A stretch of DNA of 64,000 bases from Victivallales bacterium. Its GTDB lineage: Bacteria > Verrucomicrobiota > Lentisphaeria > Victivallales > G963678815. The translations under genes were made by a program, and so were the position numbers. Position 1 is the first letter of the stretch. The number at the start of each line of letters is the position of its first letter. The notes under the pieces were generated by a model, which searched no databases, was not told where the DNA came from, and worked only from the letters and a program-made list of their open reading frames with translations. Shown one piece after another: positions 10,009 through 53,075 of this stretch. The stretch is from contig OY787460.1 of assembly GCA_963678815.1 (NCBI GenBank), forward strand, positions 6,394,861 to 6,458,860. The letters run 5' to 3'.

Positions 10009-11781
10009 TTACCCGGCATATCCTTTTTTTACTTCGTGATATGCCGCTTTCGGCTTTAATTTATCCGTCAACAACCCTTTGCGGTTGAACCCTTTCTGGA
10101 AACGCGACAACTTGATGGGGGTTTCATAATCATTCAGGACGAATATCGCCATTCCCTGCAACGTTTTTTCCTGAGTCAGTATTTTAAATAATTCCTGGAG
10201 TTTCCTGTGATATACAAGCTGCCGCTCTTCTCCGAAATCATAACCTTTTTCTCCTAAAACCCCATCGATTCCCGCCTCCGCCAAAATCACCGGTTTTCCC
10301 CAGGATGACGCCTGCCGGATTTTATCATACTGCTTTGGAAATTCATCCTTTCTGCCCGGTTCCGCGCCATCATAAATTCCCCGGTAACTGTTAATGCTGA
10401 CTATATCCAATAGTTCGATCAAAGCTTCCGGGCAACTGTGCTTTAACGTTTCTTCTCCAGCGCCTTCAACACCACCGGTATAGGTTACTAACCGGCTTGG
10501 GTCGTTTTCACGGGCATAGCCAGCCGCCTCAATAAAGAAACCCAAGTTGGATTCTTCTTCATCCTGAAGAATTTTCAAGCACTCGTTTCCAATGCTCCAG
10601 ATAATAACCGAAGGTGAATTCCTATGCTCGCAAATCATGGCTTCAAGCATCTTAAGGGCTTTTCGGCTCCGGGCCGGTTTCTGCATCGTATAAATCCAAT
10701 AGGCTGGGACTTCCTGCCAAACAAGGATTCCGGTTTTATCACATGCTTTTATGAAATCCTTGCCCTGCGGACGGTGTCCCGCGCGCGCGAAATTGCAGTT
10801 GAGATCTTTAAGGATATCAATAGTTTTATTCGCACTTTCCGGGCCAAGGGAAAAAATTCCTCTTTCCGGATCTTCGATCCAGGTTGCTACTCCTTTTAAT
10901 AAAATACTTTCGCCATTGAGTAGAATATCCTTGCCACGGATTTTGATTTCCCGCAAGCCAACTTCATCATGCCATACGTCACCGCTGCTCTGCATTTCAA
11001 TTTGAAGAAGATACAAATTCGGATTATCCGGAGACCAGAGTTTCACCTTATCCACATTCAGGGAAATAATACTTGAATACCAGGAACCTGGACGAGACTT
11101 AATTGTTTCATTTAAAACAGTTTCATTATTATCGGAAGAAATCAGTTTAACATCAACTTCTTTTAAATTGTCTCTACTCCCGGCTTCGGCCAGAACCTTT
11201 ATCTCAATCTCGACTTCATCATTAGTAATCCGGGTCGATACCGCAACGTCCCTTATATATTCCTTTGGACGGTAATACAATCTTACCGGACGAATTATTC
11301 CGCCATCGTGAAACCAATCATGAATAGTTCCCGGAACATCATCTTCATGCCTTGTGGCATCCACAAAAACCATGAGGCGGTTTTCCTCTTTCAGCTCCTT
11401 TGAAACCTCAAAAGTAAAAGGAATGCAGCCGCCTTCATGTTCGCCAATAAAAATTCCATTGAGGAAAACGCTGCACCGCTCATTTACGGCTTCAAAGTAA
11501 AGAAAAACCTTCTCATCCGTTCTGCTTAAACGAGCCGGAAACCTGTTGAGATAGACAACATTTCCCTCATAATATTTCAACTCCTTATGGAGACGGGTAA
11601 ATGCGCCGGGAACTGTTGTCGGCCAAAACGCGTCATCATCGTATGAGGGAAACCAGAAATTTTCTTTCCGGATTTTCTTCCACCATTCCTGTTTTCTCGA
11701 CCTGTTCATGGGATCAGGCAATAATCCCCAGCCATCTTTCAGTTCAATATTCTCTATTTGACCAAAATTGATTCTGTACAT
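10009..11781 (-). CDS. Glycoside hydrolase family 2 (beta-glucuronidase/beta-galactosidase-like), cytoplasmic
   Basis: Sugar-binding domain FLYFEAVNERCSVFLNGIFIGEHEGGCIPFTFEV. TIM barrel with NCNFARAGHRP, acid/base motif IIWSIGNE and nucleophile region PVILAEAG. At 590 aa it is of beta-glucuronidase-like length. No signal peptide. Confidence 0.85.
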   Translation of the reverse strand: MYRINFGQIENIELKDGWGLLPDPMNRSRKQEWWKKIRKENFWFPSYDDDAFWPTTVPGAFTRLHKELKYYEGNVVYLNRFPARLSRTDEKVFLYFEAVNERCSVFLNGIFIGEHEGGCIPFTFEVSKELKEENRLMVFVDATRHEDDVPGTIHDWFHDGGIIRPVRLYYRPKEYIRDVAVSTRITNDEVEIEIKVLAEAGSRDNLKEVDVKLISSDNNETVLNETIKSRPGSWYSSIISLNVDKVKLWSPDNPNLYLLQIEMQSSGDVWHDEVGLREIKIRGKDILLNGESILLKGVATWIEDPERGIFSLGPESANKTIDILKDLNCNFARAGHRPQGKDFIKACDKTGILVWQEVPAYWIYTMQKPARSRKALKMLEAMICEHRNSPSVIIWSIGNECLKILQDEEESNLGFFIEAAGYARENDPSRLVTYTGGVEGAGEETLKHSCPEALIELLDIVSINSYRGIYDGAEPGRKDEFPKQYDKIRQASSWGKPVILAEAGIDGVLGEKGYDFGEERQLVYHRKLQELFKILTQEKTLQGMAIFVLNDYETPIKLSRFQKGFNRKGLLTDKLKPKAAYHEVKKGYAG

Positions 11782-11800: not shown

Positions 11801-14026
11801 TTATTTCTGATTGTCATACAATATCTTCAAAGAAGGGTTCGCTATAGTAAAATTGTTAATTGAGGACATACTAATTGATAATACAGTTGGATACGGCATA
11901 TTACTGTCTTTAAAAAATTCAGGGGATATTGAGAATTTATAACTGTAATGCTGCCATTGTCCGTTTCCTTTCGCGGCATTTCCCCTGAATTCTCCCGTTC
12001 TGGTCCATCTTGAAGTTCCGTATGTATTCAGGCCATAGCCGCTCTTTTCTTTGCCAGTTCTGATGCTAACATGGGTTATGGTGACTTTTACGGAATCACC
12101 TTTTGCCGCATTGTAATCAAACTCCAATTTCAAAGGAATTTTCTGCTTTGAAGGATTTTCAAAATCCATAAATAAAAATGGTTTCAAGTTTAGAACATAT
12201 TTCGCCGGAATTTCAATTGCGGAGTTATCTTTTGTAACAGGATTCGTAGTTCTTTTCAGGTCTTCAATTGTAATTTTACCTTTATTCCCCCTGATTCTCC
12301 ACGGTGTGCGCTTCCCGGCAATAATGAAACCTGGATCGGAAACAAGGTTTTTTTCCTGCGCCTTCTCTTCTTTATTAAGTTCAGCAAAAGAATTCCTTAA
12401 ATAGGAATATATCAGATTGCCATCATTTTTTTTCTGTTCTGACATTGTAATATTATCGATTGCTTTTTCACCCTTTGCATTCTTAAGCTGCCAAAGATAC
12501 AAACTCCTGGGAATTGCCGGAATGCCGTAAGATATCCAGTTCCCGAAACGTGCCCGTGTAGGAGATGACCTTTTAGAACCGATGCAACCGACAGCCCAGT
12601 TGGTGTCACCGGTTTCGGGCATATCGCAAACTATCTGGGCGGCGCGGCAGTTCCAGAGAATGTGGTTAACTCCCTGCCAGGCATGACTTCCCGTACCATT
12701 TCTTAAGTCAATATTTCTTTGTGGAGCCATCACATTATCATAAAGATATCCGGTACACCATTTCATGTGGGGGCCTACTGCGTCAAACCCCTTTTCAATA
12801 AGACAGTCCAAAAAAACATTCGGTCCTGCCGCCGCTGAACTGGATACAAATGCATGGCGCGCATTATACGCATAGCACCTCTGGACAAGCACCTTTGATC
12901 CATTTACCATAAAGGCGTATCTTCTGCCGCCTCTAATCCTTGAAACCGGACGCAGGCAGGCACAGTCCTGTACTGTTATGTTTCGGGCTCCGTGCTCAAC
13001 TTCCACCGCTGACAGAAAAAAATGCAGCGCGGTCATGTTTTTTACCCAGCAGTTTTTTGCTTTATCTACATAAACGGCGCTGCGCGCATGTTCTTCCGGA
13101 TTTTTGTAATTTTCCGGATTTTTGTAATTCTTTTCCGAGAAATAACTAACCAGTCGAATATTTTCTACACCACTTTGGGAAATTCTGTTATCATTGTTTA
13201 TTTTGTAAACGACAGCTTTTTTAATAGTATCTTTATCAATATAAAAAAGCATTGGAGCATCAAGGGTTAGCTTATTGCCGTTTATTTTCATTATTTTTCT
13301 TTCACAGTAAAACCTTCCGGTGATGCCTCTCCATTTTTTCTCAAGATTAAGCTTTTTGAGCCAATTTTTGTTAGGAATAATCTGAATTCTGATCTCATCC
13401 CCAACAGACAACTTGTCAGCGTTTCCGATTGTGACGGTTTTAGTTCCGACCGGAATATTTTTATCAGTCAAAACACCAATTTCATCCAAGCTTGAATAAA
13501 ATGCCCTGGTAGGTTTTTCCGGATTTACATTTCCAAGGTAAATAAGCGAATGCTGCCTGTAACCTCTGCCATAATTATTTTTAACTTTTAAATTTTTCTT
13601 TGTGTCAATAACCGTTGTGCCGTTTGAAAACTGTCCTTCTCCACGCAACACAACTCCGCCTTTACCGATTACAAGATATCCCGCAACCCGATATGTTCCT
13701 GCTTTCAGGAGTAACGCTCCGCGTAAGCCATCCTTGTCCGGTTTCATCTTTCCGATTTTATCAAGCGCAGCCTGGATGCGTTCACGGTCATCACCGTTTT
13801 TTTGAGGCGAAAGAACAATCTTCACCGGCACTTCCGGTAACTTCACGCCTCCCCCTTTATATCCAACGCTGGAAAAATCGGGAATAACATTTCCGGCTTT
13901 GTCCGGAATGCTGATAATATCTGTAATATCTTTCGGCTTCGCGGATTTAAGAGGTTTTGAATCAGCGGCATTGATTATTGAACCACTAAGTAAAAATATA
14001 ACGATGAGATGCTTTATTAAGTTCAT
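11801..14026 (-). CDS. Secreted right-handed beta-helix (pectate-lyase-superfamily-like) protein with C-terminal beta-sandwich
   Basis: Signal peptide MNLIKHLIVIFLLSGSIINAADS. Entry motif DFSSVGYKGGGVKLPE...RIQAALDKIG...GALLLKAGTYRVAGYLVIGKGGVVLRGEG. The specific enzymatic activity cannot be read from the sequence. Confidence 0.6.
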   Translation of the reverse strand: MNLIKHLIVIFLLSGSIINAADSKPLKSAKPKDITDIISIPDKAGNVIPDFSSVGYKGGGVKLPEVPVKIVLSPQKNGDDRERIQAALDKIGKMKPDKDGLRGALLLKAGTYRVAGYLVIGKGGVVLRGEGQFSNGTTVIDTKKNLKVKNNYGRGYRQHSLIYLGNVNPEKPTRAFYSSLDEIGVLTDKNIPVGTKTVTIGNADKLSVGDEIRIQIIPNKNWLKKLNLEKKWRGITGRFYCERKIMKINGNKLTLDAPMLFYIDKDTIKKAVVYKINNDNRISQSGVENIRLVSYFSEKNYKNPENYKNPEEHARSAVYVDKAKNCWVKNMTALHFFLSAVEVEHGARNITVQDCACLRPVSRIRGGRRYAFMVNGSKVLVQRCYAYNARHAFVSSSAAAGPNVFLDCLIEKGFDAVGPHMKWCTGYLYDNVMAPQRNIDLRNGTGSHAWQGVNHILWNCRAAQIVCDMPETGDTNWAVGCIGSKRSSPTRARFGNWISYGIPAIPRSLYLWQLKNAKGEKAIDNITMSEQKKNDGNLIYSYLRNSFAELNKEEKAQEKNLVSDPGFIIAGKRTPWRIRGNKGKITIEDLKRTTNPVTKDNSAIEIPAKYVLNLKPFLFMDFENPSKQKIPLKLEFDYNAAKGDSVKVTITHVSIRTGKEKSGYGLNTYGTSRWTRTGEFRGNAAKGNGQWQHYSYKFSISPEFFKDSNMPYPTVLSISMSSINNFTIANPSLKILYDNQK
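13094..13129. repeat. Perfect 18-bp x2 tandem duplication inside the beta-helix CDS
   Basis: TTCCGGATTTTTGTAATT occurs twice back to back. On the coding strand it encodes NYKNPE-NYKNPE. Confidence 0.9.
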
Positions 14027-14043: not shown

Positions 14044-15447
14044 TTATTTTTTACCAGTTAAAAATTCCTTTTCATTATATACATGATTTTGATAGCCTGG
14101 ATCGTGCTCAGGCTGTTTAGCATCAACCTTCAGCTCATAGAAATGATCGCTTGTTTTCTCAACATGTTCAGACAGCAAAGTTCTATGTTGTTTCAGCACC
14201 TCCAGGTATTCCGGATTTTCAGCAAGATTTTTAGTTTCTCCGGGATCGTTTTCTATGTCATAAAGCTCTTCTCCGTCATTTTCCAGAAACCTTGTATATT
14301 TAAATTTATTTGTTCGAATCATACGTCCGGGAGCTACCGGCCCAAACTCGGATCCCTGCCGCCATTCCGTCAGTAAATATTCGTGAATCTGACCACTGTC
14401 TTTGTTCTGGCAAATTCCCGCAAGACTTTTTCCGGACAAACCATCCGGAGCGGAAATTCCAGCGAAATCACATAATGTGGGAAACAAGTCCAGGAGTGAA
14501 ACTAATTGCTTGCGCTTTCCGCCCGCGAACCCGGCAGGCAAAGCTCCCGCGAAAACCATAGGAACTTTTGCCGCTTCTTCATAGAAATTGCCATGAGTGC
14601 TGACAAGGCGATGAGAACACATACCATTGCCATGATCCGCCATCAGAACAATAATGGTATTATCATTTTCCGGACTGGATTTTAAGGCATCGATCACCAT
14701 TCCGATATGCCGGTCCACGACTTCAACATAGTGGCAATATGCCGCCAGATAATGTTGATAATTTTCCCTGCTCCATTTTGCGGCTTGAGCAAGCCGGCGG
14801 TTCCGGCAGCACAAACGCTGTATGGAATCAGCCCGGTTGTCAAAGTCCTCTATTTCAAAGTTGCCGGGCAAAGACGGCAAATCTTTGTTCAAAGGCAAGT
14901 TATCGTGAGGCCCGATATTGTCATCCATCCAGGGAAGAACATCATGCGGATTGAAGAAATCGGCAACACACAGGAATGGTTTTTCGTGTTCTTCTTTCAG
15001 GAATCCGGCACAAAGCTCAGCGGTCCGGCGATCCATGAAAGTACCGTAATAGTCATTCCACGGCGCTTCCTCCCCGGGCGTCACAATCCTGGTCTTATTT
15101 GAATTCCGGCAATTAAAATCTCTCAATGCATGCGCATCATGCCTTTTACCAATATGTTCAGTTTGGTATCCGGCCTTTTTGAATACTTCTCCGAGAGTCG
15201 TTATCCCCTGATCAATTTCCAATGTTCCGGAGTTCCATTCTACGCCAATTTCATGTGGATATCTGCCAGTCCAGAATGAAGACCGTGAAGGCACGCATAG
15301 CGGATAATTGCAGTACGCATTTGAAAAGGAAATCCCGCTTTCAGCAAGATTATTAATATTCGGAGCATTGACATAATCATTATTAATCATCTTTGGCGAA
15401 AGATGATCAGAGATAACAATTAAAATATTCGGTTTTTTTTCTGACAT
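14044..15447 (-). CDS. Sulfatase (Cys-type), no signal peptide
   Basis: MSEKKPNILIVISDH...YPLCVPSRSSFWTGRYP. I prefer the ATG at 15447 (AAGGAAG upstream, no overlap with the GNAT gene) over the track start at 15504. Confidence 0.9.
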   Translation of the reverse strand: MSEKKPNILIVISDHLSPKMINNDYVNAPNINNLAESGISFSNAYCNYPLCVPSRSSFWTGRYPHEIGVEWNSGTLEIDQGITTLGEVFKKAGYQTEHIGKRHDAHALRDFNCRNSNKTRIVTPGEEAPWNDYYGTFMDRRTAELCAGFLKEEHEKPFLCVADFFNPHDVLPWMDDNIGPHDNLPLNKDLPSLPGNFEIEDFDNRADSIQRLCCRNRRLAQAAKWSRENYQHYLAAYCHYVEVVDRHIGMVIDALKSSPENDNTIIVLMADHGNGMCSHRLVSTHGNFYEEAAKVPMVFAGALPAGFAGGKRKQLVSLLDLFPTLCDFAGISAPDGLSGKSLAGICQNKDSGQIHEYLLTEWRQGSEFGPVAPGRMIRTNKFKYTRFLENDGEELYDIENDPGETKNLAENPEYLEVLKQHRTLLSEHVEKTSDHFYELKVDAKQPEHDPGYQNHVYNEKEFLTGKK

Positions 15448-15475
15448 TCTGTTGTCTTCCTTATAATTGTGTTTT

Positions 15476-16327
15476 TCATCCCACTTCCGGGCCGGCAATA
15501 GCATAAATTATTTCCGGTTTACCTGGGAATTTATTTTCACCGCGAAACATGCGGGTAAGTTTTCTTTGATATTTAAATCGATATTTATTCAGTATATTTT
15601 CGGCATTAACATTTGATAACGCATCCATATAGACCGTCTCCCCATATAATTCGTCAAGAACCTTTTTCAGCAGCGCTTCAGCCGCGAAATTACTGTCCGC
15701 CACCCATGGCCCTATATACCATGCCCTTGATCCGGGACGCACAAATATGTATCCTTTCAGATCGTTTTCATCTTCAGAAAATGCATAAGCCTTCCCTGTA
15801 TCCTGAATACTTTCCAGCAGCTCCATCCTGTCTGCGCCAAAACCACGCAAATCATATCGTGCTAAACTATCCGGGGGTAATCCTCCTAAATCAACGATAC
15901 TTTCCGGTGGCATATCTATTTTGGGAGTAACAACTTGCCAGCGATTCAAAATATATTCATCCTGAAATCCAAGTTTAACATAAACAGGTTTGCCCATCGG
16001 AGTTGCATCGAGTTTAATACTTGTCACTTTCTGTTCATCCAGATATTCAAGGCATTTTTTCATTAATCCGCCGCCTACGCCTTTTCCTCTCAGGTCAGGA
16101 TGAACAAGCACCATACCTATCCAGGCAACTTTATTCCGGTAATTAATGGTTGTGGCAGTACCTGCCGGCTTTCCATCGAAAATCGCAAGGAAACATCCAT
16201 TCGGAGCAATTTCAATATATCTTTTCCAGTCATCAACAGTTTGATTCCAACCTGCGATGTTCACCAATTCCATGGCAAAATCCAAATATTGTTCATTTAA
16301 TATTTTAAATTTCAATTGCGATTTCAT
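15476..16327 (-). CDS. GNAT family N-acetyltransferase (two-domain)
   Basis: Acetyl-CoA motif A: VLVHPDLRGKGVGGGLMKKCLEY. The ATG overlaps the stop of the upstream MttB-like gene (ATGA at 16324-16327). Confidence 0.8.
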   Translation of the reverse strand: MKSQLKFKILNEQYLDFAMELVNIAGWNQTVDDWKRYIEIAPNGCFLAIFDGKPAGTATTINYRNKVAWIGMVLVHPDLRGKGVGGGLMKKCLEYLDEQKVTSIKLDATPMGKPVYVKLGFQDEYILNRWQVVTPKIDMPPESIVDLGGLPPDSLARYDLRGFGADRMELLESIQDTGKAYAFSEDENDLKGYIFVRPGSRAWYIGPWVADSNFAAEALLKKVLDELYGETVYMDALSNVNAENILNKYRFKYQRKLTRMFRGENKFPGKPEIIYAIAGPEVG

Positions 16328-17703
16328 TTTAAATTCATCTTTGCAAAATAATGCTGTTCAATTTTTAGAAGTTCTTTAATTTGCTCCGGCTTTAAAACCG
16401 GCTCCGGATATTCTTTCAGCAGGTTCGCCACTTTCTCTTTAGCCTTATCATTCAGTGACTTCGCGCCTGAATTCCGCCATAATTCCCGCGATTGCCTGCA
16501 TAATATTTCAGGCTCGAAATTTTCCCGAAAGTGCCTGAAGGTATGTTCGCATCCCAGAAATTCGCCGCCAATTCCAATTTCACGGACAACATTCAGGGCC
16601 AGTGTTTCCGGGTTTATTTCAAATCCCCGTTTAAAACGTTTTGCGTAAGCGATCAATTCGTTGTCGATCACGGCCTGCTCCATCGAAAGCGCCATTTCCG
16701 ATTCCAGCTGCCCGGCGCCCCATATCAAATTGACGCCGCCTTCAATATGGGAATGAAAACCGAACATTTTCTCCGCTATGGCTTGCCCGTCCGGGATCAT
16801 TGCCTCCGTGGAAACCCAGGAACAGGAAGGCAAATTGTAGAACCTTCCCATTGCGGCGGACGCTTGCGCCATCAAGGAATTTTCCGGACCGCCGGTAACG
16901 GCAATCATACTTTTCATATCCATAACATGCGCCAATCCAAGATTGTAGACACAAGGGCGTTCTGGTTCAAGAATCTGATTGATTACCAATCCTGCAAGGA
17001 TTTCGGCGTTCCCGACAGCAATACTTCCGGCCAGAGTCACCGGCCCGGAAGCTCCGGCCATGGGTTCGCCATTGACGGTAACGGGGATTCCCTGTCCGGC
17101 GGAAGCGGCAAATATTTCCAGGGCCAGATTTGTCCAGCGCAATGGGCCATGAGCGGTGAACCCCATTGAAAACCATGGACTGTCACTCACTACTTTTTTC
17201 ATTTCGATCAATGCTTCACATCCTGTTTTTGTGCAGGAAAGGACCCGTAAATGTTTACGCGTATTATTTGCCATGACACGTAATCCCACAAAATCCCGGG
17301 CGCCCGGTGGCACGTCATCCATGGAAACCCCAAATACTCCGTCAACATGTTCAAGGTGTTCCATCAGAAAGGAAAATTTTCCCATATCCTCCATACTAAA
17401 AGGTCTTGTTTGATTGTCTTCCACTATTCTAAGGGCGGGGGTGCTCCAGAATAATGGTTCGGATCGAGATGTCAACATCCTGGAACTTCCCGAGCGATCT
17501 GAAAAAACAACTTCAGAAGGACAGAGCTTCAAGTATTCCTCGATCATGTTTTGTTCAAGCCGGACTACCTCCGCCGCATTTCCAGGTTTCGCGCCGTTTT
17601 TCATCAACATATCGAGGATTATTGAATGCTCGATTTTGATTCCGGGATTTTCCAGAAGCGCAAGGGACGTCCGGTGAATTTCTTCACATTGTTTCTGATT
17701 CAT
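16324..17703 (-). CDS. MttB-superfamily (trimethylamine methyltransferase-like) protein, non-pyrrolysine
   Basis: N-terminus QCEEIHRTSLALLENPGIKIEHSIILDMLMKNGAK, central GASGPVTLAGSIAVGNAEILAGLVINQIL, and a length of ~460 aa all fit the family. The reading frame is uninterrupted, so there is no in-frame TAG. Confidence 0.75.
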   Translation of the reverse strand: MNQKQCEEIHRTSLALLENPGIKIEHSIILDMLMKNGAKPGNAAEVVRLEQNMIEEYLKLCPSEVVFSDRSGSSRMLTSRSEPLFWSTPALRIVEDNQTRPFSMEDMGKFSFLMEHLEHVDGVFGVSMDDVPPGARDFVGLRVMANNTRKHLRVLSCTKTGCEALIEMKKVVSDSPWFSMGFTAHGPLRWTNLALEIFAASAGQGIPVTVNGEPMAGASGPVTLAGSIAVGNAEILAGLVINQILEPERPCVYNLGLAHVMDMKSMIAVTGGPENSLMAQASAAMGRFYNLPSCSWVSTEAMIPDGQAIAEKMFGFHSHIEGGVNLIWGAGQLESEMALSMEQAVIDNELIAYAKRFKRGFEINPETLALNVVREIGIGGEFLGCEHTFRHFRENFEPEILCRQSRELWRNSGAKSLNDKAKEKVANLLKEYPEPVLKPEQIKELLKIEQHYFAKMNLK

Positions 17704-17741: not shown

Positions 17742-18512
17742 TTACGGAACATCCGTATGGATAAAACCCCAGGCACTATCTCTGACTGCCTCAAGATAAG
17801 GTATGCTTTCCACATGATAATCCAGAAACAGAACATTTTCAGCGTTATTGTGGCGAAACGTTGAATCCTGTTCAGGTCTTCCATACATGCCATTGGAACT
17901 GCCTCCAAACAAAATCATCTGGTCACATTCATACAACAACGGCAAATTCGACATATTCTTGCCGCTTCCGGTAATGAGGTCCGGATTGTCTATGAGCATG
18001 ACCGGGGCCCAAAGATCGAGACAGCCAATTACTTGGTTTTGCATATAAGTCCGGTTCTTTATGACGTTGTCGGGCGCGGGAGTGGCAGGACACCAAAAGA
18101 CGGTATTTGGCTTTTCCTGAGTATCATCATTGGCCTCCATACCTATATATGAACATATCTGTGCATCCCAGCAATTGAATGCAGGGGTTTTCGTTGATTT
18201 TGTGTATGCAGGATACCGCCCATTATACTCCTGGGTATACAGCGAGTATGCCAGTCCAAGTTGTTTCATGTTATTAACGCATGTCGATTGCAACGCAACC
18301 TCCCTTGCTTTTTTTAAAGCCGGAAGCAGCATAGCGGCTAATATAGAAATTATCGCTATCACCACAAGTAACTCGATTAAAGTAAACGATATAAACCGGC
18401 GGCAACCCCGGTTTGCCGTTCCAGCAGGCACAACGTTACTCTCTGTCCGTACAAGGCCGGGAACCTTGCGGCCCGAGACCGTTCCGAAATGTTTTTTTCC
18501 ATCACCGTACAT
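17742..18512 (-). CDS. Prepilin-type N-terminal domain protein, DUF1559-like, with 46-aa leader
   Basis: ...[38 protein letters not shown]-terminal [14 protein letters not shown] is a degenerate H-X9-DG (DG replaced by DY). GGAGGA Shine-Dalgarno precedes the ATG at 18512. Confidence 0.85.
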
Positions 18513-18585: not shown

Positions 18586-19872
18586 TCAATACTCAAATGA
18601 TTTTATTTTTTCCCTTACGCCGACGCCTTCCAATGCGCCGGGACAAATCTGTTTATTCACGCACATGGCAGCGGCAATGCCTGCTGCCGTTCCGGTAAAC
18701 ATACAGGTGGGTTGCCCTCGCAAGGACGCCAGCGCCCCGCGGTCGGAAGAAATGCACCGTCCCGCTACGAGAATTCCCCTGGTATGCTTTGGAACCAGGC
18801 ACCGGTACGGAATTTCATACCAGTCACCTTCTTCAGGCCGGTTTGCCCGGATATACTCCAACGAATACGGAATGGTTGTACCCGGCGGAGAATCATGAAA
18901 ATCTATCCAGAAGTTGGCTTCAGCAACGCCGTCGTCGAATTTTTTCGCGTTCAGAACGTCCTCCCCGGTTAGAATGTAATGACCGGCAATGCGGCGGGAC
19001 TCCCGGGTTCCCAGCAATTCATGGAAACGTGATATCCGCATATTTTCGTGTCCGGGAAGGTGCTTCCGGCAAAACCTTAACAACCTGATTGCGGCAATTT
19101 GACAGTCAAGCAGAGTGTTGCTTACCTGTTCGGCTTCGGAACAGTCCACCCCTTCGACTTCCCATTGCCTGAATATGGGCTGATCATCCTTGATGGGAAA
19201 CGTTTCGGCGGGAGGGCTGAAAATTCCGTTTGGCACACTTAACTCGCCGCTTTTCCGCCCATCCTTGAATAATTGCCGCAATTTCTCCGCGCCGTATAAT
19301 TTACACAAAGATTGAATATCGACATTCTCAACATCCATCCTGAAATTCACATGCTGCAAGCGTTTATCCTCCGGGTCACCCTTCATGAATTCCGCCCCGG
19401 CATCCACTGCCAATTGCCCGTCAGCGGTGGCGTCGACAACCACGCTGGAACGGATCAGTTTTCTTCCGTTTTTATTGGCGGAATAAATACCTCGCGCCTG
19501 ATTCCCCGATTGATAGACTGATTCCGCAACCGTTCCATAAAGGATTTCACAGCCAAGCTCATGCAGTTTTTCGGCGACAATCGCTTTAAATGCCTCCTGA
19601 TCAAAACGCAACCGTCCCGGTTCATGGAACCGTTGCTTATTTTCAATTACCTCCGCAAAGCCGTCCCTGAGCATGATTTTTTTCAGATAGCTGCCGAAAG
19701 GCCCAAGCCTGGTATCAACCCAGCACGAAACCCGGCAACCGGTCCCCATGCCGCCCAGGGAATTACAGTATTCCACCAATAGCGTTTTCGCGCCACTGTA
19801 CGCGGAAGCCGCGGCTGCCCCGATTCCCGCCGGACCGCCGCCACACACTATGACATCATACTCTTTTGACAT
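18586..19872 (-). CDS. FAD-dependent oxidoreductase (GIDA/FAD_oxidored-like)
   Basis: YDVIVCGGGPAGIGAAAASAYSGAKTLLVE dinucleotide fold, DATADGQLA, and C-terminal GRCISSD...TGTAAGIAAA. I prefer the ATG at 19872 (MSKEYD...), 2 nt after the regulator's stop. Confidence 0.8.
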   Translation of the reverse strand: MSKEYDVIVCGGGPAGIGAAAASAYSGAKTLLVEYCNSLGGMGTGCRVSCWVDTRLGPFGSYLKKIMLRDGFAEVIENKQRFHEPGRLRFDQEAFKAIVAEKLHELGCEILYGTVAESVYQSGNQARGIYSANKNGRKLIRSSVVVDATADGQLAVDAGAEFMKGDPEDKRLQHVNFRMDVENVDIQSLCKLYGAEKLRQLFKDGRKSGELSVPNGIFSPPAETFPIKDDQPIFRQWEVEGVDCSEAEQVSNTLLDCQIAAIRLLRFCRKHLPGHENMRISRFHELLGTRESRRIAGHYILTGEDVLNAKKFDDGVAEANFWIDFHDSPPGTTIPYSLEYIRANRPEEGDWYEIPYRCLVPKHTRGILVAGRCISSDRGALASLRGQPTCMFTGTAAGIAAAMCVNKQICPGALEGVGVREKIKSFEY

Positions 19873-19874
19873 TT

Positions 19875-21257
19875 TTATATCACTTCTTCCCACTTTAAAT
19901 GCTGTTCAAAACTGTCATGGATGCTTGATGTTATGTCCGATTGGAGTTTTTGCGCAAAATCTTCCGGGCTGATCATTTCGGACCACAGCAGAGGAGTCAG
20001 TGCCTGGATCTGATCAAAAATCTCAAATTGGTGCGAATTCCGCATGCTTATTCTGGAATTTGGCAATTCTTTGATAAATTTCCATTTTATTGATTTTTGG
20101 GGAATTACGCTTTTCCTTATGGGAATTCCGCAATTATCCTGTTCCAGTTTCATCTGGTATTCAGCTGAAATTACCGTTTTAATAAAATCCACTGCAAGTT
20201 TTTCATGTTTTGTTTCTTTATTAATGCCAAATCCTGTAGCAAGTAAACCTGAAGGATACTTTCCCGGCCCCGGAACGGGAATGACATCAAAAGGGAAATT
20301 TGCTGAATCGATAAATCGAGGCAGAGTATAGCAACAATCCAAAAGCATTGCGACCTTGCCTTCACAAAAGAGTTTTATGACTTGTGACACCGGAGACGGT
20401 GATATTTTTGCTGAAGTCACATAATCACGGAAAAACTTCAGCGCTTTAACCGTTTCAGGAGAATCCAACTTGCATTTACCATTGTCGTCAAGAATGGAAC
20501 CGCCTTTCTTTGTAATCAAAACCGGCCAGCGGTTTTTATGGTCGCGAAATGCAAAACCGTACTGGTTTATTCCCGGGACGGTCAACTGCTTCGCAAGAAT
20601 GGAAAATTCTTTCCAGCTTAGATTTTTTCCGGGAATGGAAACTCCGCTTTTCCGGTAAATATCCTTGTTGCAAAAAATCATCACTGGAGAGAAAAGACAA
20701 GGAACGGCATACCGCCGGTTATCTCTTACATACGGGGAGTCAGGCAAGCGAATAATATCATCATTAAAAAATGCTGATTCATATTCGGAAATATCCTTTA
20801 ACAATTGATGCTGGAGTAAAGCGTCAAGGGTATTTCCATAGGTTAAAATGACGTCGAACTTTTTATTTTTCGGTCCATTTTCCGTTTCCATTCCAAAGTT
20901 GTATTCAAATTCCCGTAAAGAAAAATAAGTATAATCTACTTTTACCTGAGGGTGGGTTTTCTCAAATAAACCGGTGAGTTTCTCCATATCCATTTTAGGA
21001 TTGTGGGCAAGATATACGGAGAGCTTTGTCCTTTGCGACTCGCTTACATACGTGCCACGGTTCAAATCCCGGAACAATACCCCTTCAGCAACAAGACTCG
21101 ACAGAATTTTATTGATAGTAAGGCGGCTGATATGGTATTTTTCGGATAAAACCCTCTCCGACGGGATTTTATCGCCAGGTTTGTATATTCCGTCCCTGAT
21201 TTGTTTTTTCAGAAATTTGGTGAATTTTTCCGTTGTTGTAACTCGATCAAAACGCAT
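19875..21257 (-). CDS. Transcriptional regulator: GntR-type winged HTH fused to an ABC-type (MalE-like, family 1) solute-binding-protein fold
   Basis: N-terminus IRDGIYKPGDKIPSERVLSEKYHISRLTINKILSSLVAEGVL (GntR HTH). The remaining ~380 aa follow the SBP pattern (YAVPCLFSPVMIFCNKDIYRKSGVSIPGKNLSWKEF...LFCEGKVAML). Confidence 0.8.
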   Translation of the reverse strand: MRFDRVTTTEKFTKFLKKQIRDGIYKPGDKIPSERVLSEKYHISRLTINKILSSLVAEGVLFRDLNRGTYVSESQRTKLSVYLAHNPKMDMEKLTGLFEKTHPQVKVDYTYFSLREFEYNFGMETENGPKNKKFDVILTYGNTLDALLQHQLLKDISEYESAFFNDDIIRLPDSPYVRDNRRYAVPCLFSPVMIFCNKDIYRKSGVSIPGKNLSWKEFSILAKQLTVPGINQYGFAFRDHKNRWPVLITKKGGSILDDNGKCKLDSPETVKALKFFRDYVTSAKISPSPVSQVIKLFCEGKVAMLLDCCYTLPRFIDSANFPFDVIPVPGPGKYPSGLLATGFGINKETKHEKLAVDFIKTVISAEYQMKLEQDNCGIPIRKSVIPQKSIKWKFIKELPNSRISMRNSHQFEIFDQIQALTPLLWSEMISPEDFAQKLQSDITSSIHDSFEQHLKWEEVI

Positions 21258-21288: not shown

Positions 21289-21330
21289 TGGTTTAACCAT
21301 CATTATATCTTATATCCCGGAAATTGTCAA
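21289..21330 (-). promoter_or_regulatory. Promoter-operator cassette 1 upstream of the GntR-SBP regulator
   Basis: Minus strand reads TATTGACAATT (-35 TTGACA = 21330-21325), 17 nt, TATAAT (21307-21302), then GATGGTTAAACCAATAATCC (palindrome TGGTT-N-AACCA, 21289-21299). Confidence 0.6.
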
Positions 21331-27439: not shown

Positions 27440-27454
27440 TAACGGGGATTCTTA

Positions 27455-28876
27455 TTATAGATTTTTCCTGCTCTTTTTTGTTTTTTCCGGACCGCCCAGA
27501 TATACTGGAAGTTTGTCGTATTCACCTTTTCTCAGATACTCGATAAAGTTATTTGCACGCAAATGAGTATGGTCGACGGAACGGAATCGCCAGAGCAGCA
27601 TTGCCTGCCTGAGCTCATTCAGAACCTGTTGGCAGTCTGGATATTCGGAAAGATTGTTCCATTCCCAGGTATCCGACGGGAGATGATACAATTCCTCGTT
27701 CCCGGTGGACGACAAAATATATTTATACTCCTTATTTCGAGCGGAAAAGAAAAACGGGCCTTGTCCATAAAATTCTTCACTGAAAGAAAATTCACGTTCC
27801 GTTTCCGCCGTTCCTGAAGCCAGCGGGATCAAACTTTCCCCTTGGAGTCCGGCCGGTTTCTCCAAACCGGCAAGTTCCGCCAAGGTCGGAAAAACATCAA
27901 TCGATTCTACCAGGCTTTCCACTTCGCGCAGTTGAAATTTTGCCGGACAATTCACGATCAGCGGCACATGGATCAGCGCTTCATCAAGGGACATTCCCTT
28001 GCCGACACAATTGTGGTTGCCCATGAAATCTCCGTGATCGGAAAGGAAGATAATAATGGTGTTGTCACGTTGTCCTGATTCGTCCAGGGCCGCCAGCAGT
28101 TTGCCCACGTTGCGGTCCATCAGCGTCACCATGGAATAGTACATGCTGAGCGCGAATTTTAAAGTCTCGTCACTCTTCGCAAGTCTTCCGCGCGCCTGCA
28201 TGTAGAGTTTGCGTTCGAAAGGTTTGGAGTCAAGCGAATTTTCCGGGGCTTTCGGCAACTCGATTTCCGCCGGGTCATAAAGCTTGGATTCGTCCCGGGG
28301 ATATGTTACCGGGCCGTGCGGGGCCTCAAAGCTCATCATCAACAGGAACGGATTTTCCTCCTGTTCACGTTTTCGGATGTAGTTTCCGCCGAGATTACCC
28401 AACACGTTCGTAGCCCAATCTTTAGAGGGAATGTCGGAGTACCCGTGACAGAGGTCTTTCAGCGGCGGCTGTTCCGGATATCTTACTGAAATATTCCGGG
28501 ATTCCAGATAATGATTGTAATCCGGGTAGAGGTCGAAAATTTCATCCCAGTCATCCCGGTTTACCGAGTGGGTTTTGCCGAAATATGCCCGGTGGTAGCC
28601 ATGTCCGCCCAGAAAACGCGCAAAAGTCAACTGATCTTCCGGATAGTACCCGGTGCTGTTGTCGAGCACTCCATGACCGCTGACATATTTTCCGGTATGA
28701 AGCGACATCCGTGAGGGCATGCAAACCGGATTCTGTGACGTACAGTTGTTGAACTTTATCCCGGTTTCCGCAAGTTTATCGATGTTCGGGGTTTTAACTG
28801 TCGGGTTGCCGTAACAGCCCACGGCCCGCGCGCCCAGCGTATCCGGATATATTATCAGAAAATTCGGTCTGATCAT
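27455..28876 (-). CDS. Sulfatase (Cys-type), no signal peptide
   Basis: MIRPNFLIIYPDT...NPVCMPSRMSLHTGKY...LSDHGD. I prefer the ATG at 28876, which forms an ATGA overlap with the lyase stop and has GGAAGG upstream. Confidence 0.9.
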   Translation of the reverse strand: MIRPNFLIIYPDTLGARAVGCYGNPTVKTPNIDKLAETGIKFNNCTSQNPVCMPSRMSLHTGKYVSGHGVLDNSTGYYPEDQLTFARFLGGHGYHRAYFGKTHSVNRDDWDEIFDLYPDYNHYLESRNISVRYPEQPPLKDLCHGYSDIPSKDWATNVLGNLGGNYIRKREQEENPFLLMMSFEAPHGPVTYPRDESKLYDPAEIELPKAPENSLDSKPFERKLYMQARGRLAKSDETLKFALSMYYSMVTLMDRNVGKLLAALDESGQRDNTIIIFLSDHGDFMGNHNCVGKGMSLDEALIHVPLIVNCPAKFQLREVESLVESIDVFPTLAELAGLEKPAGLQGESLIPLASGTAETEREFSFSEEFYGQGPFFFSARNKEYKYILSSTGNEELYHLPSDTWEWNNLSEYPDCQQVLNELRQAMLLWRFRSVDHTHLRANNFIEYLRKGEYDKLPVYLGGPEKTKKSRKNL

Positions 28877-30720
28877 ATTAAATTTACCTTCCATGATTTT
28901 TCACAATATTCAATAATATACTCATTTTGAGATTTTTTGAATACCGGCAGTTTTTCCACTTTTTCATTTACCGGAAAGATCAAAGTATCGATGACGCATG
29001 GCCCGGTTTGCCACGCAGCCAGCTCATACGCCGGAACCTTTCGGGAATATTCCGGACAATGCCATCCCCGGATCGGATCATCAGAACCTTTAAACAAACT
29101 GTAATCACAATTTTGCCCCGCCAGCGTCATTATGATCAGATTGGCGTCGGGATTCCTGGTTACCGCGCAATTATTTTCCGGCAGCAGTTCTACGTCATTT
29201 TCCGGGGCAAAGTGCCAAAGTTGCTCAATGGGAACAGCCTCGTCACTTTCTATTATATCACGGACAATCCAGAAATTCGGTTTATTAAAATAGATAACCC
29301 GGCGATGCTCCATTTTTACAGACTTTTCCCCGTCAGAATAACCGGCATTGAAGATTCCCTTGGCAATATCATGATCAGTTGCAATTTCCATGCCGCCTTC
29401 CGCATCGGCAATCACCTGGGTATACCCGGCGGGAAACACCGTATTGCAGGAAGCGGAAGATTTGAAGTATCCGGCTTGGCGCATCCATCCCAAATTCTTG
29501 TCACTGGTGGTGTAACGCCAGCGACCGCCATTAACAAGGAACTTGCGGCCATACGCGGAAACCTCAACCGACAACTGGTCACCAATGCAATGTCTGCCTT
29601 TCTTACCCACATCGAAGCTCATATACAAGGCTTTTTCCGACCAGTCTGACCTCATGACGGCAAATCCGGCGTCTGGATAAAAATAAGAGGCCCCGGATGG
29701 TTCATTCCCATCCGCGCCCCGGCTCAACACGTATTGAATTTCGCTATCTTCAAATGCGCCGAGAATACGCTCTAACTGCCTTTTTCGGATGGTCCCCGAA
29801 TTGGATTCATTTGTAACCGGAACCGAAAAATCCGGTTTTAGCTGGTATAGTTCAGCTTTGCAGATATTCCTAAGCCAATCAGGAAAACCGGCAGGAAAAA
29901 TATCGCCCATTCCATTCATTTCAGCAACACAATACAGATTAAAATAACCCCGCACCATAACCCAGCGGTAACCCCCTGAGTTTTCCCGGCTATAGCCATC
30001 GGGATAAAACTCACGATCACGTGCCGACATCAAAAACCGCACACCTTCTTCCAGCCATTCTTTAGCATCGGAAAACTCCCGGAAAACAATGCCGCAAACC
30101 GCCAAAAACGAAGTTTCCATTATTGAATGGTTGCCTATAAGCCAGTAACTTTGATGCAAATGTTGAGCCTGCTGATGAATCGAATTCAGGATTTTCGTAA
30201 ATACTTCCGGAGTCATCGACGGACTTTTAATCAGATGCTTCAACGCCAGCGGCCAGGTTTCGCCAATCCTAAAACCGGTTTCCAGGACCCGCCAGTTACT
30301 TCTCTTGACCTTAAGGTAACGTTCACCCCACATTTCCCGGAAATCCGCTTCAGGCAGATCAGGTTTTGGAACGCGGTCAATCCAGTCCGTCATCTGGAAA
30401 ATCGCGGCTTCAGCAAACTTTTCATCACCTGTATCACGGTATTTCCAGGCAAGTTGCTCCAAGTGATGATGATGGGCCAGTGTGCAAGTCCATTCCAGAT
30501 CTCCTTCAGGGGCGCAAGTCCAGTCTGGAGAAGCGCAAAACTCCATACAATGTTCTCCAAGGCAAAAAATATTTCGCGCATATTTTTCCGACAGGCCGGC
30601 ACGTTTCTGTTGCATCACCGGCCCCAACTCTTCGGCAATCTCGTCCGGAATCCGGCTGTCAAGTTCATGCCGGTAAAACTCCAAGGTTTCCGTGGCGTCG
30701 GTAAAAGGTAAATTGTTCAT
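28873..30720 (-). CDS. Heparinase II/III-family (alginate-lyase-fold) polysaccharide/oligosaccharide lyase, cytoplasmic
   Basis: N-terminal toroid: DLEWTCTLAHHHHLEQLAWKYRDTGDEKFAEAAIFQMTDWI. Also WLIGNHSIMETSFLAVCG (N-H catalytic-type motif) and a C-terminal beta-sandwich. No signal peptide. Confidence 0.75.
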   Translation of the reverse strand: MNNLPFTDATETLEFYRHELDSRIPDEIAEELGPVMQQKRAGLSEKYARNIFCLGEHCMEFCASPDWTCAPEGDLEWTCTLAHHHHLEQLAWKYRDTGDEKFAEAAIFQMTDWIDRVPKPDLPEADFREMWGERYLKVKRSNWRVLETGFRIGETWPLALKHLIKSPSMTPEVFTKILNSIHQQAQHLHQSYWLIGNHSIMETSFLAVCGIVFREFSDAKEWLEEGVRFLMSARDREFYPDGYSRENSGGYRWVMVRGYFNLYCVAEMNGMGDIFPAGFPDWLRNICKAELYQLKPDFSVPVTNESNSGTIRKRQLERILGAFEDSEIQYVLSRGADGNEPSGASYFYPDAGFAVMRSDWSEKALYMSFDVGKKGRHCIGDQLSVEVSAYGRKFLVNGGRWRYTTSDKNLGWMRQAGYFKSSASCNTVFPAGYTQVIADAEGGMEIATDHDIAKGIFNAGYSDGEKSVKMEHRRVIYFNKPNFWIVRDIIESDEAVPIEQLWHFAPENDVELLPENNCAVTRNPDANLIIMTLAGQNCDYSLFKGSDDPIRGWHCPEYSRKVPAYELAAWQTGPCVIDTLIFPVNEKVEKLPVFKKSQNEYIIEYCEKSWKVNLI

Positions 30721-35321: not shown

Positions 35322-35367
35322 GATATTATATTCACCTCCAACGTTTCTGCATATAAATTTCAGATGT

Positions 35368-35396
35368 ATAATAATAATGTAAAAACACAATGTCAA
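35368..35396 (-). promoter_or_regulatory. Promoter of the 33885-35321 sulfatase
   Basis: Minus strand reads TTGACA (35396-35391), 17 nt, TATTAT (35373-35368). Confidence 0.5.
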
Positions 35397-35444
35397 AGTT
35401 CCTGGCACAGAAATCAATCAACTTTTCAATTCGGCATTTATTCC

Positions 35445-35622: not shown

Positions 35623-36726
35623 ATGAATTCAAAAGCGAGGATGAAAGCGGTATTTACCGGTCAACGGCCTGACAAAGTTCCATTTTGCCCGACCATATAT
35701 CTGGATCATGCGGCGCTGGTCAGCGGCAGACAGTTTGAAGATGTGATTGCCAATCCCGCGTTGTACGGGGAAGTGTTGGCTGGGGCCGCCGCAACATATA
35801 AAACCGACGCGGCAAGATTCATCATGGGGCCGGAAGCTTCCTGGTATGAAAAAAAGGAAGTCAGGAAAGAACAGGATAAACTTATCCAGTACGACAGGAT
35901 CTCCGGAAAGGCGGAAGGATATTTTGATATCGAAGGCGGCGGCGGTTTTATTCCCTATAATGAGCCGACCCCGGTCACTTCAAAAAGCGATGTTGACGCC
36001 ATCGAAGTTATCACCTGCGATGAATATCTGGAACGAGGAAATTTCAAGGACACCAAAACCTGGATAGCCAAAGCCGATGAGCAGGAATTTTTCACCGTCG
36101 GGCTGTCCGGCGCGCAAACCCTGAATTTCATGGTTGAAAAAATGGGCTCGACAGAGGCGGCGCTCCTATGCTTTTACGACGATCCCGAGCTTGCCCTTGC
36201 CCTTATCAATAAAGGAACAGCAATCAGTCTCGAGAAAGGCAAAGCTTTCATCAAATGCGGAATCGACTGTCTTTACATCGGGGATTCTTATGCTTCCGGA
36301 AGTGTAATATCTCCCGATATTTACGAACGGTTCTGCGCTCCGGCTTACAAGGAAGCGGCTGAAGAATTTCACCGTCTCGGGGTATTCTGCTACAAACACT
36401 GCTGCGGAAATTACAATCCGCTGTTGCGAAGTCTGCCCGAAACCGGCGTCGACGGCATGGACGGCATCGATCCAACCAGCGGGATGAGCGTAAAGCATAC
36501 CAAGGAACAGATTGGCGATAAAATTACGCTGATGGGCGGAATAAGCTGTCTGACTTTGCTGAATGGCTCCCCCGGGGATGTTTACGAGGAAGCACGGCAA
36601 TGTATCGAAGCCGGGAAACCCGGCGGCGGATACGTGTTGGGCAGCGCTTGCGCGGTACCGAAATTATCGCCGTTTGAAAACCTGCACACAGTATTTCAGG
36701 CAAGGGAAGACTTCGGAGTTTATTGA
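35623..36726 (+). CDS. URO-D/MtaA-like (uroporphyrinogen decarboxylase family) TIM-barrel protein
   Basis: N-terminus ARMKAVFTGQRPDKVPFCP. Core: CLYIGDSYASGSVISPDIYERFCAPAYKEAAEEFHRLGVFCYKHCCGNYNPLL. C-terminus: GGYVLGSACAVPKLSPFENLHTVFQA. All three are family hallmarks. Confidence 0.8.
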   Translation: MNSKARMKAVFTGQRPDKVPFCPTIYLDHAALVSGRQFEDVIANPALYGEVLAGAAATYKTDAARFIMGPEASWYEKKEVRKEQDKLIQYDRISGKAEGYFDIEGGGGFIPYNEPTPVTSKSDVDAIEVITCDEYLERGNFKDTKTWIAKADEQEFFTVGLSGAQTLNFMVEKMGSTEAALLCFYDDPELALALINKGTAISLEKGKAFIKCGIDCLYIGDSYASGSVISPDIYERFCAPAYKEAAEEFHRLGVFCYKHCCGNYNPLLRSLPETGVDGMDGIDPTSGMSVKHTKEQIGDKITLMGGISCLTLLNGSPGDVYEEARQCIEAGKPGGGYVLGSACAVPKLSPFENLHTVFQAREDFGVY

Positions 36727-52961: not shown

Positions 52962-53075
52962 ATTGTACCTTTTTTAATAAAATATATACCTGTTCTTATA
53001 TTCCATTATCATACTTTATTGCATAACTTAATACAAGAGACTTAAGATGTAAAACTACTTTTGCGGGAATTTGAG

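Follow-up and report, generated by a model that had tools for sequence, protein, structure and literature searches.

Three adjacent genes on the minus strand of the 64-kb stretch of contig OY787460.1 shown above (assembly GCA_963678815.1; hereafter the window) encode a methyltransferase-like protein, an acetyltransferase and a sulfatase. The first gene (16324..17703) codes for MttB1, a non-pyrrolysine TIM-barrel protein of the MttB superfamily with a length of 459 aa. The second (15476..16327) codes for a two-domain GNAT protein of 283 aa (Acetyltransf_1 and Acetyltransf_18), and the third (14044..15447) for a Cys-type homologue of S1_9-like delta4,5-hexuronate-2-O-sulfatases. To our knowledge, genes of the MttB superfamily are very common, and few of their substrates are known, all of which are small methylated amines handled with a dedicated corrinoid protein.

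The trio is part of an unbroken run of closely spaced genes on the minus strand. An earlier reading of the same DNA, made from the sequence alone (the sequence-only reading), had described three open reading frames (ORFs) here, with an ATGA overlap between the first two and a Cys-type sulfatase 28 nt further on, and all of this was confirmed. The ATG of GNAT overlaps the stop codon of MttB1 as ATGA, and the ATG of the sulfatase is at 15447, 28 nt after the GNAT stop. The sulfatase had also been called leaderless. This is correct for the protein, of which the catalytic domain begins at residue 6 so that there is no signal peptide, but not for the mRNA, because the start codon lies behind a Shine-Dalgarno-like sequence (AAGGAAG).

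The MttB1-GNAT pair and its conservation

MttB1 matched the Pfam family MTTB (PF06253) with an E-value of 8.4e-71 over residues 2-446, and hence belongs to this family. Its best NCBIfam model was TIGR02369, the model of the pyrrolysine-containing trimethylamine methyltransferase, at 310 bits and below the cutoff of 525 bits. The best solved structure was MttB (7xcl; 162 bits), and MtgB (9yce) matched with 146 bits; both alignments covered the full length. The position of pyrrolysine in MttB (X334 in 7xcl) is occupied by Ser298 in MttB1, a residue that is invariant within the clade, and the reading frame contains no internal stop. The protein had thus been described correctly as non-pyrrolysine.

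In MtgB, glycine betaine is bound by Y97, R312, H348 and F356, of which R312 binds the acidic group and is conserved in all characterised quaternary-amine members (PMC13080624). We matched these residues with those of MttB1 by a pairwise HMMER alignment at ~30% identity, in which they correspond to P89, C294, W328 and E336, respectively. Two candidate functions were rejected. A bona fide trimethylamine methyltransferase does not agree with the lack of UAG or pyrrolysine, with Ser298 and with the TIGR02369 score, while a betaine enzyme of the MtgB type would require the conserved Arg, the aromatic pair and the His. Ser298 together with P89, C294, W328 and E336 therefore suggests that MttB1 is neither of the two.

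Membership of the second protein in the GNAT family was supported by both of its Pfam domains (PF00583, 8.9e-15; PF18014, 1.1e-19) and by an acetyl-CoA loop with the sequence R-G-K-G-V-G-G. Its closest structure was that of a putative acetyltransferase with no stated function (3ddd). In the public gene call (P0128) the protein is 18 residues shorter, at 265 aa. Because 32 homologues align over the first 18 residues of the long form, we prefer the long form, of which the start overlaps MttB1.

Conservation of the gene order was studied in two sets of loci. An alignment of MttB1 relatives, which are 55-60% identical and come from many phyla, was used to collect 80 MttB1-clade loci from species-representative genomes, and a separate set consisted of 80 randomly retrieved metagenome loci holding GNAT relatives (L096-L175). 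The two-domain GNAT gene was directly adjacent to the MttB gene in six of the 80 MttB1-clade loci (L020, L037, L063, L080, L087 and L089), in either gene order. If GNAT were a single-copy gene placed at random, about 0.04 such adjacencies would be expected. The two closest GNAT homologues sampled, both with 45% identity, are also encoded directly downstream of an MttB gene, as in the window (P0129 in L177/L178; P0133 in L179/L180). The MttB proteins of these latter pairs share 65-71% identity with one another and 37-41% with MttB1, and hence represent a different subclade. In total, the paired genes span GNAT identities of 28-45%, MttB identities of 37-55% and two MttB subclades. Since the pairing extends across such deep divergence in both families and occurs in at least seven lineages, these results imply that MttB1 and GNAT form a real two-gene module that recurs across phyla, and point to a functional link between the two proteins.

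The surroundings of the module varied. In two loci the MttB-GNAT pair is followed by a gene for a DUF5060 protein of ~980 aa (L177:2180-5128 and L179:8089-11031), and both pairs are situated amid housekeeping genes (valyl-tRNA synthetase, YbeY). In L087 and L089 the MttB gene is placed between the genes for an MFS transporter and GNAT. Peripla_BP_2 genes occur beside GNAT and MttB in L063 and L080; the possibility that they are BtuF-like was dismissed for want of a B12-specific match in NCBIfam. In the GNAT set, MFS, NAD-epimerase-like and/or DHDPS-like genes are present on the majority of the longer contigs. Many of these GNAT relatives come from soil and peat metagenomes (e.g., L106, L107 and L108), and the recurrent combination looks like a conserved small-molecule module.

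Other relatives of MttB1 are found near amino-acid-type ABC transporters, class-III aminotransferases, creatininase, OYE-type flavoproteins, MR/MLE enzymes and DHDPS-like genes. These neighbours of an amine or amino-acid type favour small nitrogen compounds as the substrates in most lineages. The loci from the Planctomycetes-Verrucomicrobia-Chlamydiae (PVC) group and L020 and L037 have sugar or sugar-acid neighbours instead. An FAD-dependent oxidoreductase of the family PF12831 was found near the MttB1-clade gene in six of the 80 loci, including those of Lentisphaerae metagenome-assembled genomes (MAGs), and was directly adjacent to it in L021, L044 and L076. In the window, such an oxidoreductase (18586..19893, minus strand; Pfam E-value 6e-83) is separated from MttB1 only by the gene for a DUF1559 protein (17742..18512, minus strand). 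Domain searches identified the latter as a protein with prepilin-type N-terminal methylation, which is a hallmark of PVC bacteria.

The sulfatase and the surrounding operon

The sulfatase of the trio, with the formylglycine motif C-V-P-S-R, gave a full-length alignment with Bacteroides thetaiotaomicron BT1596 (3b5q/5g2t; 42% identity over 446 positions, 396 bits, E-value 1e-117). BT1596 is listed as a '2-O glycosaminoglycan sulfatase' and falls into the S1_9 group (PMC6460246). The S1_9 motifs were recognised as PNILIVISD, PFLCVADFFNPH, NTIIVLMADHGNG and KYTRFLENDGEELYDIENDPGETKNLA, and all positions that the accessible part of this paper gives as 100% conserved were kept (D52, P194, P204, H205, H310, G311, K418, Y419, E430, D438 and E441 in PB2SF numbering). 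Some motif positions with a lower frequency differ, and the second N-terminal motif was outside this comparison. On the strength of these similarities, the protein can be annotated with good confidence as a putative S1_9-type 2-O-sulfatase of delta4,5-unsaturated uronates.

This annotation bears on the function that had been suggested for the trio. In analogy to the lysosomal breakdown of heparan sulfate by SGSH and HGSNAT, the sulfatase would be a sulfamidase that frees the amine of glucosamine, GNAT would re-acetylate this amine, and the MttB barrel would have been recruited for a new glycan reaction, so that the three proteins form one functional unit. The heparinase-like lyase and the GH2 enzyme invoked for this purpose are indeed present in the same window, along with several sulfatases, and the genes of the trio are tightly packed with an ATGA overlap. 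However, human SGSH (4mhx) aligned with residues 9-105 of the sulfatase only, i.e. with the N-terminal catalytic core, at an E-value of 6e-12 and as the last of the 60 matches listed. All six sulfatases that the window encodes have the SGSH_C domain of Pfam, which is therefore not diagnostic of N-sulfatase activity. We rejected the sulfamidase identity; as far as can be told from its homology, the enzyme is strictly an O-sulfatase. HGSNAT is a member of a membrane-protein family unrelated to GNAT, and no HGSNAT-family Pfam match was found in the operon region of the trio. Moreover, the GNAT relatives occur mostly with MFS, epimerase-like and DHDPS-like genes rather than with glycosidases, although glycosidases were not surveyed in the GNAT loci.

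The gene order did not favour a single unit either. The proposed adjacency of MttB, GNAT and sulfatase proved to be conserved for the first two genes, but not for the third. A sulfatase gene was present within 10 kb of MttB in only four of the 80 MttB1-clade loci and was never its immediate neighbour, which is the chance level given the density of sulfatase genes in PVC genomes. With the trio sulfatase as query, no homologue was found in the 80 GNAT loci. In the window itself, six of the ~44 genes encode sulfatases, and at this density ~25% of all genes would be expected to have a sulfatase gene no more than two genes away. We conclude that the sulfatase is not a part of the MttB-GNAT module and belongs to the glycan part of the operon. 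Both an O-sulfatase identity and a lack of conserved adjacency had been named by the sequence-only reading as grounds for refuting its model. A heparan-sulfate-style unit of all three proteins is highly improbable, and the analogy should not be propagated in annotation.

The glycan part of the operon continues on the same strand 3' of the trio. It comprises a gene for a 741-aa protein without assigned fold (11801..14026), a GH2 gene (10009..11781) and genes for four Gfo/Idh/MocA proteins (8751-9989, 7144-8466, 4658-5614 and 3635-4594) and another sulfatase (5642-7147), the last five identified by Pfam. The GH2 protein has the N-terminal, middle and C-terminal GH2 domains and is nearest to beta-glucuronidases (NF007538, 194 bits). 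An SDR and Ldh_2 pair is also located near the sulfatase gene, among the glycan genes. The glycan-operon setting of the trio was therefore described correctly with respect to GH2 and Gfo/Idh/MocA, but was not confirmed for the 'beta-helix protein', as the 741-aa protein was called. This protein had no Pfam match even at an E-value of 0.1 and no PDB match at an E-value of 1, its single-sequence AlphaFold model was unusable (pLDDT 32), and it showed no similarity to the true Beta_helix protein of the window (41920-43311). Similarity to the DUF5060 proteins of L177 and L179 was also lacking. By eye, its N-terminus (MNLIKHLIVIFLLSG) looks like a hydrophobic segment of the signal-peptide type.

At the other end, the first gene of the operon (19875..21257, minus strand) encodes a regulator in which a GntR helix-turn-helix domain is fused to a family-1 solute-binding domain (Pfam GntR and SBP_bac_1/8). 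Among the other loci, this regulator had a weak and distant match in L086 (34 bits, ~9 kb from the MttB gene). A sigma-70-like sequence with perfect consensus, TTGACA-17-TATAAT, lies 5' of the regulator gene (21302..21330, minus strand), and from the consensus match we infer that it functions as a promoter. Terminator-like matches in the operon region were not above the expectation from shuffled sequences. Because of this perfect promoter consensus and because terminator-like matches were no commoner than in shuffled sequence, the operon probably spans from ~21.3 kb down to ~3.6 kb on the minus strand.

An upstream operon contains a gene for a heparinase II/III-like polysaccharide lyase (28873..30720, minus strand; Hepar_II_III_N 8e-48 and Hepar_II_III_C). 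This lyase, the beta-glucuronidase-like GH2 and the delta-hexuronate-2-O-sulfatase homologue together support the prediction that a sulfated glycan with uronate residues is indeed the target of the locus. Of the six sulfatases in the window, five begin at the catalytic domain without a signal peptide (5642-7147, 14044-15447, 27455-28894, 45546-47030 and 54564-55994), and an N-terminal extension was seen only in the sixth (33885-35417). Desulfation in this organism therefore appears to be intracellular. An anaerobic sulfatase-maturating enzyme was not found in the window.

Several gene arrangements elsewhere in the window may be mentioned. Two DUF6259 paralogues with 36% identity (43324-45537 and 50027-52180) flank the genes for a sulfatase (45546-47030) and a GH38 alpha-mannosidase-like protein (47023-50025). 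A sulfatase gene with a DUF3604 gene directly behind it was found in the window (25409-28894) and in two Spirochaetales MAGs (L079:3-2712 and L080:5915-9149), in all three cases near an MttB1-clade gene. Where the glycan region ends, a PFL-like glycyl radical enzyme of 777 aa (60614-62947) is encoded beside regulators of the AraC and GntR/LacI types, and no activase for it was visible before the end of the window. This enzyme, together with the five DUF1559 pseudopilin-like proteins that Pfam identified in the window, points to an anaerobic PVC-type bacterium as the host.

URO-D genes and the MttB2 module

The sequence-only reading had implied that a second methyltransferase is absent from the window. 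On the plus strand, however, a gene for an MtaA/CmuA-like protein of the URO-D family is present at 35623..36726 (Pfam URO-D, 3e-38), 18 kb from MttB1 and on the opposite strand. It scored 109 bits against TIGR01463 (MtaA/CmuA) versus 28 bits against HemE, and is thus clearly nearer to the MtaA/CmuA methyltransferases, although its score is below the family cutoffs. It has a Zn-type H-C-C...C motif (H259-C260-C261 and C343). It is a possible candidate for a second methyltransferase. The gene is divergent from a sulfatase gene and convergent with a gene for a sodium:solute symporter. A second, weaker URO-D/MtaA-like gene is located at 24258-25370, and both are part of glycan operons. Among the 80 MttB1-clade loci, 12 carry URO-D/MtaA-like genes, and in several phyla a URO-D gene lies directly 3' of MttB (L018, L023, L069, L073 and the L005-L010 group). 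The L005 group also has genes for NuoF-like, GltD-like and ferredoxin proteins upstream of MttB. An apparent fusion of MttB and URO-D in L018 was discarded, as the two are in different frames and URO-D begins after the MttB stop.

A second MttB-like gene next to a sulfatase gene, at 53076-55994, had been overlooked. It encodes MttB2 (53076..54548, plus strand; 490 aa), which matched Pfam MTTB with an E-value of 9e-15. Together with a divergent gene for an AraC-type regulator (52131..52961, minus strand; Pfam) and the gene for a Cys-type sulfatase without signal peptide that starts 15 nt 3' of MttB2 (54564..55994, plus strand; Pfam), it forms a compact unit (52131-55994). MttB2 is only 23% identical to MttB1, and has a two-residue gap at the pyrrolysine position; hhalign supported its membership over the full length with a probability of 99.1%. 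No PDB match was obtained by sequence. An AlphaFold model built from six sequences had a low confidence (pLDDT 59) and can be used at fold level only, where the top 10 Foldseek matches were all MttB-superfamily proteins. MttB2 is thus a very remote member of the superfamily, yet one that matches over its whole length.

MttB2 is also rare. Among 5.8 billion proteins we found six, three of which are paralogues from this same genome (among them P0123 with 66% and P0125 with 53% identity), and at ≥45% identity only three clusters were present among 1.84 billion representatives. Outside this genome, only three public relatives reach ≥45% identity. A sulfatase gene is placed directly 3' of MttB2 in the window, L091 and L093-L095, and is absent in L176. 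The window and L091 also have an AraC gene beside the pair, which in L091 is located 3' of it. In L091 (8964-20749) the gene order is aldose epimerase, MttB2, sulfatase, AraC, epimerase, DegT, URO-D, sulfatase, URO-D and a 226-aa protein resembling the B12-activation domain of MetH. The two URO-D genes and the MetH-activation-like protein hint at corrinoid chemistry inside a glycan locus; no B12-binding domain was found in the 21 kb analysed of this contig. L091 too encodes a GH123_N/DUF6259 protein.

One might suppose that the AraC regulator, MttB2 and the sulfatase make up a pathway of which the substrate is a quaternary amine with a sulfate group, for example choline-O-sulfate. In this pathway the sulfate takes the place of the phosphate in the phosphocholine used by MthB and the sulfatase acts before or after demethylation. 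The recurrent position of a sulfatase behind MttB2 and of AraC beside it would fit, as would the requirement of MthB for an anionic choline ester (PMC12155760) and the fact that the sulfatase at 54564-55994 has some full-length matches to choline sulfatases in the PDB. A choline sulfatase was not the best of these matches, however, and the paired sulfatases are only 27-30% identical and not orthologous, which also led us to reject their co-evolution with MttB2. Furthermore, the sulfatase is missing from L176, the neighbours include sugar-type genes (aldose epimerase, DegT, Gfo, GH-like genes), and the pairing is known from only two independent lineages. The choline-O-sulfate pathway is accordingly improbable, and we regard the MttB2-sulfatase pairing as a lead, not a finding.

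Proposed function and comparison with known systems

The explanation that we favour, with a probability of about 0.5, is that the trio represents two things side by side in one minus-strand operon: a glycan sulfatase, and an MttB1-GNAT module in which MttB1 acts as a corrinoid-dependent methyl-amine methyltransferase. The sulfatase would strip the 2-O-sulfate from the unsaturated end left by a polysaccharide lyase. The heparinase II/III-like protein is the obvious candidate for this lyase, and would supply the unsaturated uronate ends. As it lacks a signal peptide, the sulfatase probably acts inside the cell, ahead of GH2 and the Gfo/Idh/MocA enzymes. MttB1 would take a methyl group from a methylated amine other than glycine betaine or free trimethylamine, and would hand it to a Co(I) corrinoid carrier whose gene lies beyond the window, with the MtaA/CmuA-like protein (35623-36726) as a possible downstream methyltransferase. 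GNAT may N-acetylate a free amino group of the substrate or product of MttB1, and thereby tailor or trap this compound; its proposed role is modelled on that of the kinase MthK.

As stated by the sequence-only reading, the 64 kb contain no B12-binding protein or reductive activator: Pfam gave no B12-binding or RamA-type match in any window ORF of ≥150 aa, and a scan of all six frames of the window did not detect the DxHxxG..SxL..GG motif. An Rfam scan of the window found neither a cobalamin riboswitch nor any other RNA.

A number of observations weigh against the favoured assignment. That the window holds no corrinoid-binding protein (PF02310/PF02607) for MttB1 is unusual when compared with the MttB systems characterised so far, and makes a corrinoid-independent chemistry conceivable. 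Nor was a methyltransferase-type corrinoid protein found within 10 kb in the 80 MttB1-related loci, or a B12-binding domain in the precomputed Pfam lists of 16 further loci. The classical B12-binding motif occurred once in 1.99 Mb, which comprised the window, the 80 genome loci and every further locus collected; this single case was a mutase-like protein of L059. Among 109 neighbour proteins from 12 loci, Pfam identified 13 URO-D proteins and no recurrent B12-binding family, and the loci with URO-D did not have one either. The residue that corresponds to R312 of MtgB is Cys in MttB1 and Ala in the clade consensus, and the aromatic pair of MtgB is not kept at the aligned positions. An adjacent MttB gene was seen in only one of the 80 GNAT loci (L096). 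Finally, GH88-like, PfkB and Eda-like genes surround the module in L020 and L037 as parts of a sugar-acid cluster, and in the window it shares its operon with glycan genes and a regulator of the sugar type, with no terminator standing out. From these surroundings, a sugar-derived substrate of the module is conceivable.

Genes resembling those of the first and the second methyltransferase without a corrinoid protein nearby are an unusual combination, and the missing carrier may be read in two ways: either the carrier is shared or has its gene elsewhere, or a different chemistry is involved. In the latter case the MttB1 clade would not consist of corrinoid methyltransferases at all; the TIM barrel would have another, cofactor-independent activity on an amine or amino sugar, of which GNAT handles the product. 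This would agree with the systematic lack of corrinoid-protein genes around the 80 loci and in the window, the loss of the substrate-binding Arg and aromatic residues of MtgB, and the Ser at the pyrrolysine position. It would be hard to reconcile with the recurrence of MtaA/CmuA-type URO-D genes directly 3' of MttB and with the strong full-length conservation between MttB1, MttB and MtgB. Moreover, a single corrinoid module of Ruegeria pomeroyi serves both betaine demethylation and methionine synthesis (PMC12478193). Since such modules can serve more than one pathway, a dedicated corrinoid gene next to MttB1 need not be expected, and its absence is only weak evidence for recruitment of the barrel. 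We consider a corrinoid-free activity unlikely, and the recruitment of MttB1 to a glycan reaction a minority reading.

The embedding of these genes in glycan loci allows yet another explanation, namely an oxygen-free demethylation of the sugars of sulfated glycans, in which O- or N-methyl groups would be taken off by MttB1, MttB2 and the MtaA/CmuA-like proteins, in place of the P450 route of aerobes, which is closed to an anaerobe. The glycyl radical enzyme suggests that the host is such an anaerobe, and its glycan loci contain two MttB-like and one or two URO-D/MtaA-like genes. Sugar-related genes accompany MttB relatives elsewhere as well, as Gfo/Idh/MocA genes were present in 22 of the 80 MttB1-clade loci, and the MttB2 homologue of L091 is found with aldose epimerase, two URO-D proteins, two sulfatases and the MetH-activation-domain-like protein. 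Yet PVC genomes are so rich in Gfo/Idh/MocA and sulfatase genes that chance would be expected to place them nearby, many clade members occur in amine or amino-acid contexts of non-PVC phyla, and again no corrinoid protein is nearby. All characterised substrates of the MttB superfamily are amines (PMC13080624), and we found no published description of a demethylation route of this type for methylated sugars. Such a route is distinctly unlikely as the function of these genes.

In a broader form, PVC anaerobes would carry MttB-superfamily and MtaA-like enzymes as working parts of their sulfated-glycan loci, in the MttB-GNAT and AraC/MttB2/sulfatase modules. Without the need for oxygen, these enzymes would demethylate methylated sugars, amino sugars or sulfated quaternary amines, with a corrinoid carrier that is shared, encoded elsewhere or not needed. 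This broader proposal we judge as rather unlikely. If demethylation in glycan loci were true, it would extend the substrate range of the MttB superfamily beyond small betaines.

The new elements of our analysis are the recurrence of MttB and GNAT as a module, the lack of corrinoid proteins near the genes of the MttB1 clade, and the rare module of MttB2, sulfatase and AraC. In the literature on MttB with sulfatases, GNAT, glycan loci, URO-D or methylated sugars, we found no description of such associations. The cross-phylum partnership with GNAT provides a concrete handle in the search for a new substrate class, for which amines with a free amino group are the candidates. At present, matches to 'mttB' in metagenomes are often counted as potential for methylamine or betaine demethylation. 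This practice would change if the clade indeed had no corrinoid protein of its own, or if its substrates were derived from glycans.

Comparison with known systems clarifies which features of the locus have precedents. With the Methanosarcina barkeri MttB (7xcl/7xcn), MttB1 shares the best match to a solved structure and to an NCBIfam model, but it lacks UAG/pyrrolysine, remains below the 525 bits of TIGR02369 and has no MttC neighbour. The glycine betaine:corrinoid methyltransferase MtgB (2qne/9yce; PMC13080624) is similar in its fold, in its alignment over the full length and in being non-pyrrolysine, and differs in the four substrate-binding residues described above. The MtgBCD system of R. 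pomeroyi (PMC12478193) and the MttB clade linked to split MetH (PMC9324843) are likewise non-pyrrolysine and occur outside methanogens and acetogens. In contrast to the MttB1 clade, with its one mutase-like B12 domain in 80 loci, they are described as co-located with genes for corrinoid-binding proteins and homocysteine methyltransferases.

For the sulfatase, the nearest known systems are BT1596, PB2SF and Phep_2825 of the SulfAtlas S1_9 group (PMC6460246). They share with it the 42% full-length identity (to BT1596), the signature motifs and a neighbouring polysaccharide lyase. BT1596 is Ser-type whereas the trio sulfatase is Cys-type, and their alignment starts at about residue 20 of BT1596. 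PB2SF has a signal peptide (PMC6460246), and the trio sulfatase has none. The lysosomal pair SGSH and HGSNAT has only a general idea in common with the trio, the coupling of desulfation and N-acetylation on a sulfated amino-sugar polymer. It differs in that the trio has a sulfatase of the uronate 2-O type, a soluble two-domain GNAT and an adjacency that is not conserved.

The closest parallel to the MttB-GNAT module is the choline system of Eubacterium limosum, MthK-MthB-MthC-MthA, in which the kinase MthK must make phosphocholine before MthB can demethylate it (PMC12155760). The E. limosum cluster includes the corrinoid protein MthC and the methyl-THF (methyl-tetrahydrofolate) methyltransferase MthA, whereas no corrinoid protein is encoded near MttB1. 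There, the partner is a kinase and the substrate is known, whereas the partner here is GNAT, a putative acetyltransferase. In both cases, an MttB-superfamily gene is found beside the gene of an enzyme that modifies, or here may modify, the substrate, and in this respect MthK may serve as a model for GNAT or for the sulfatase.

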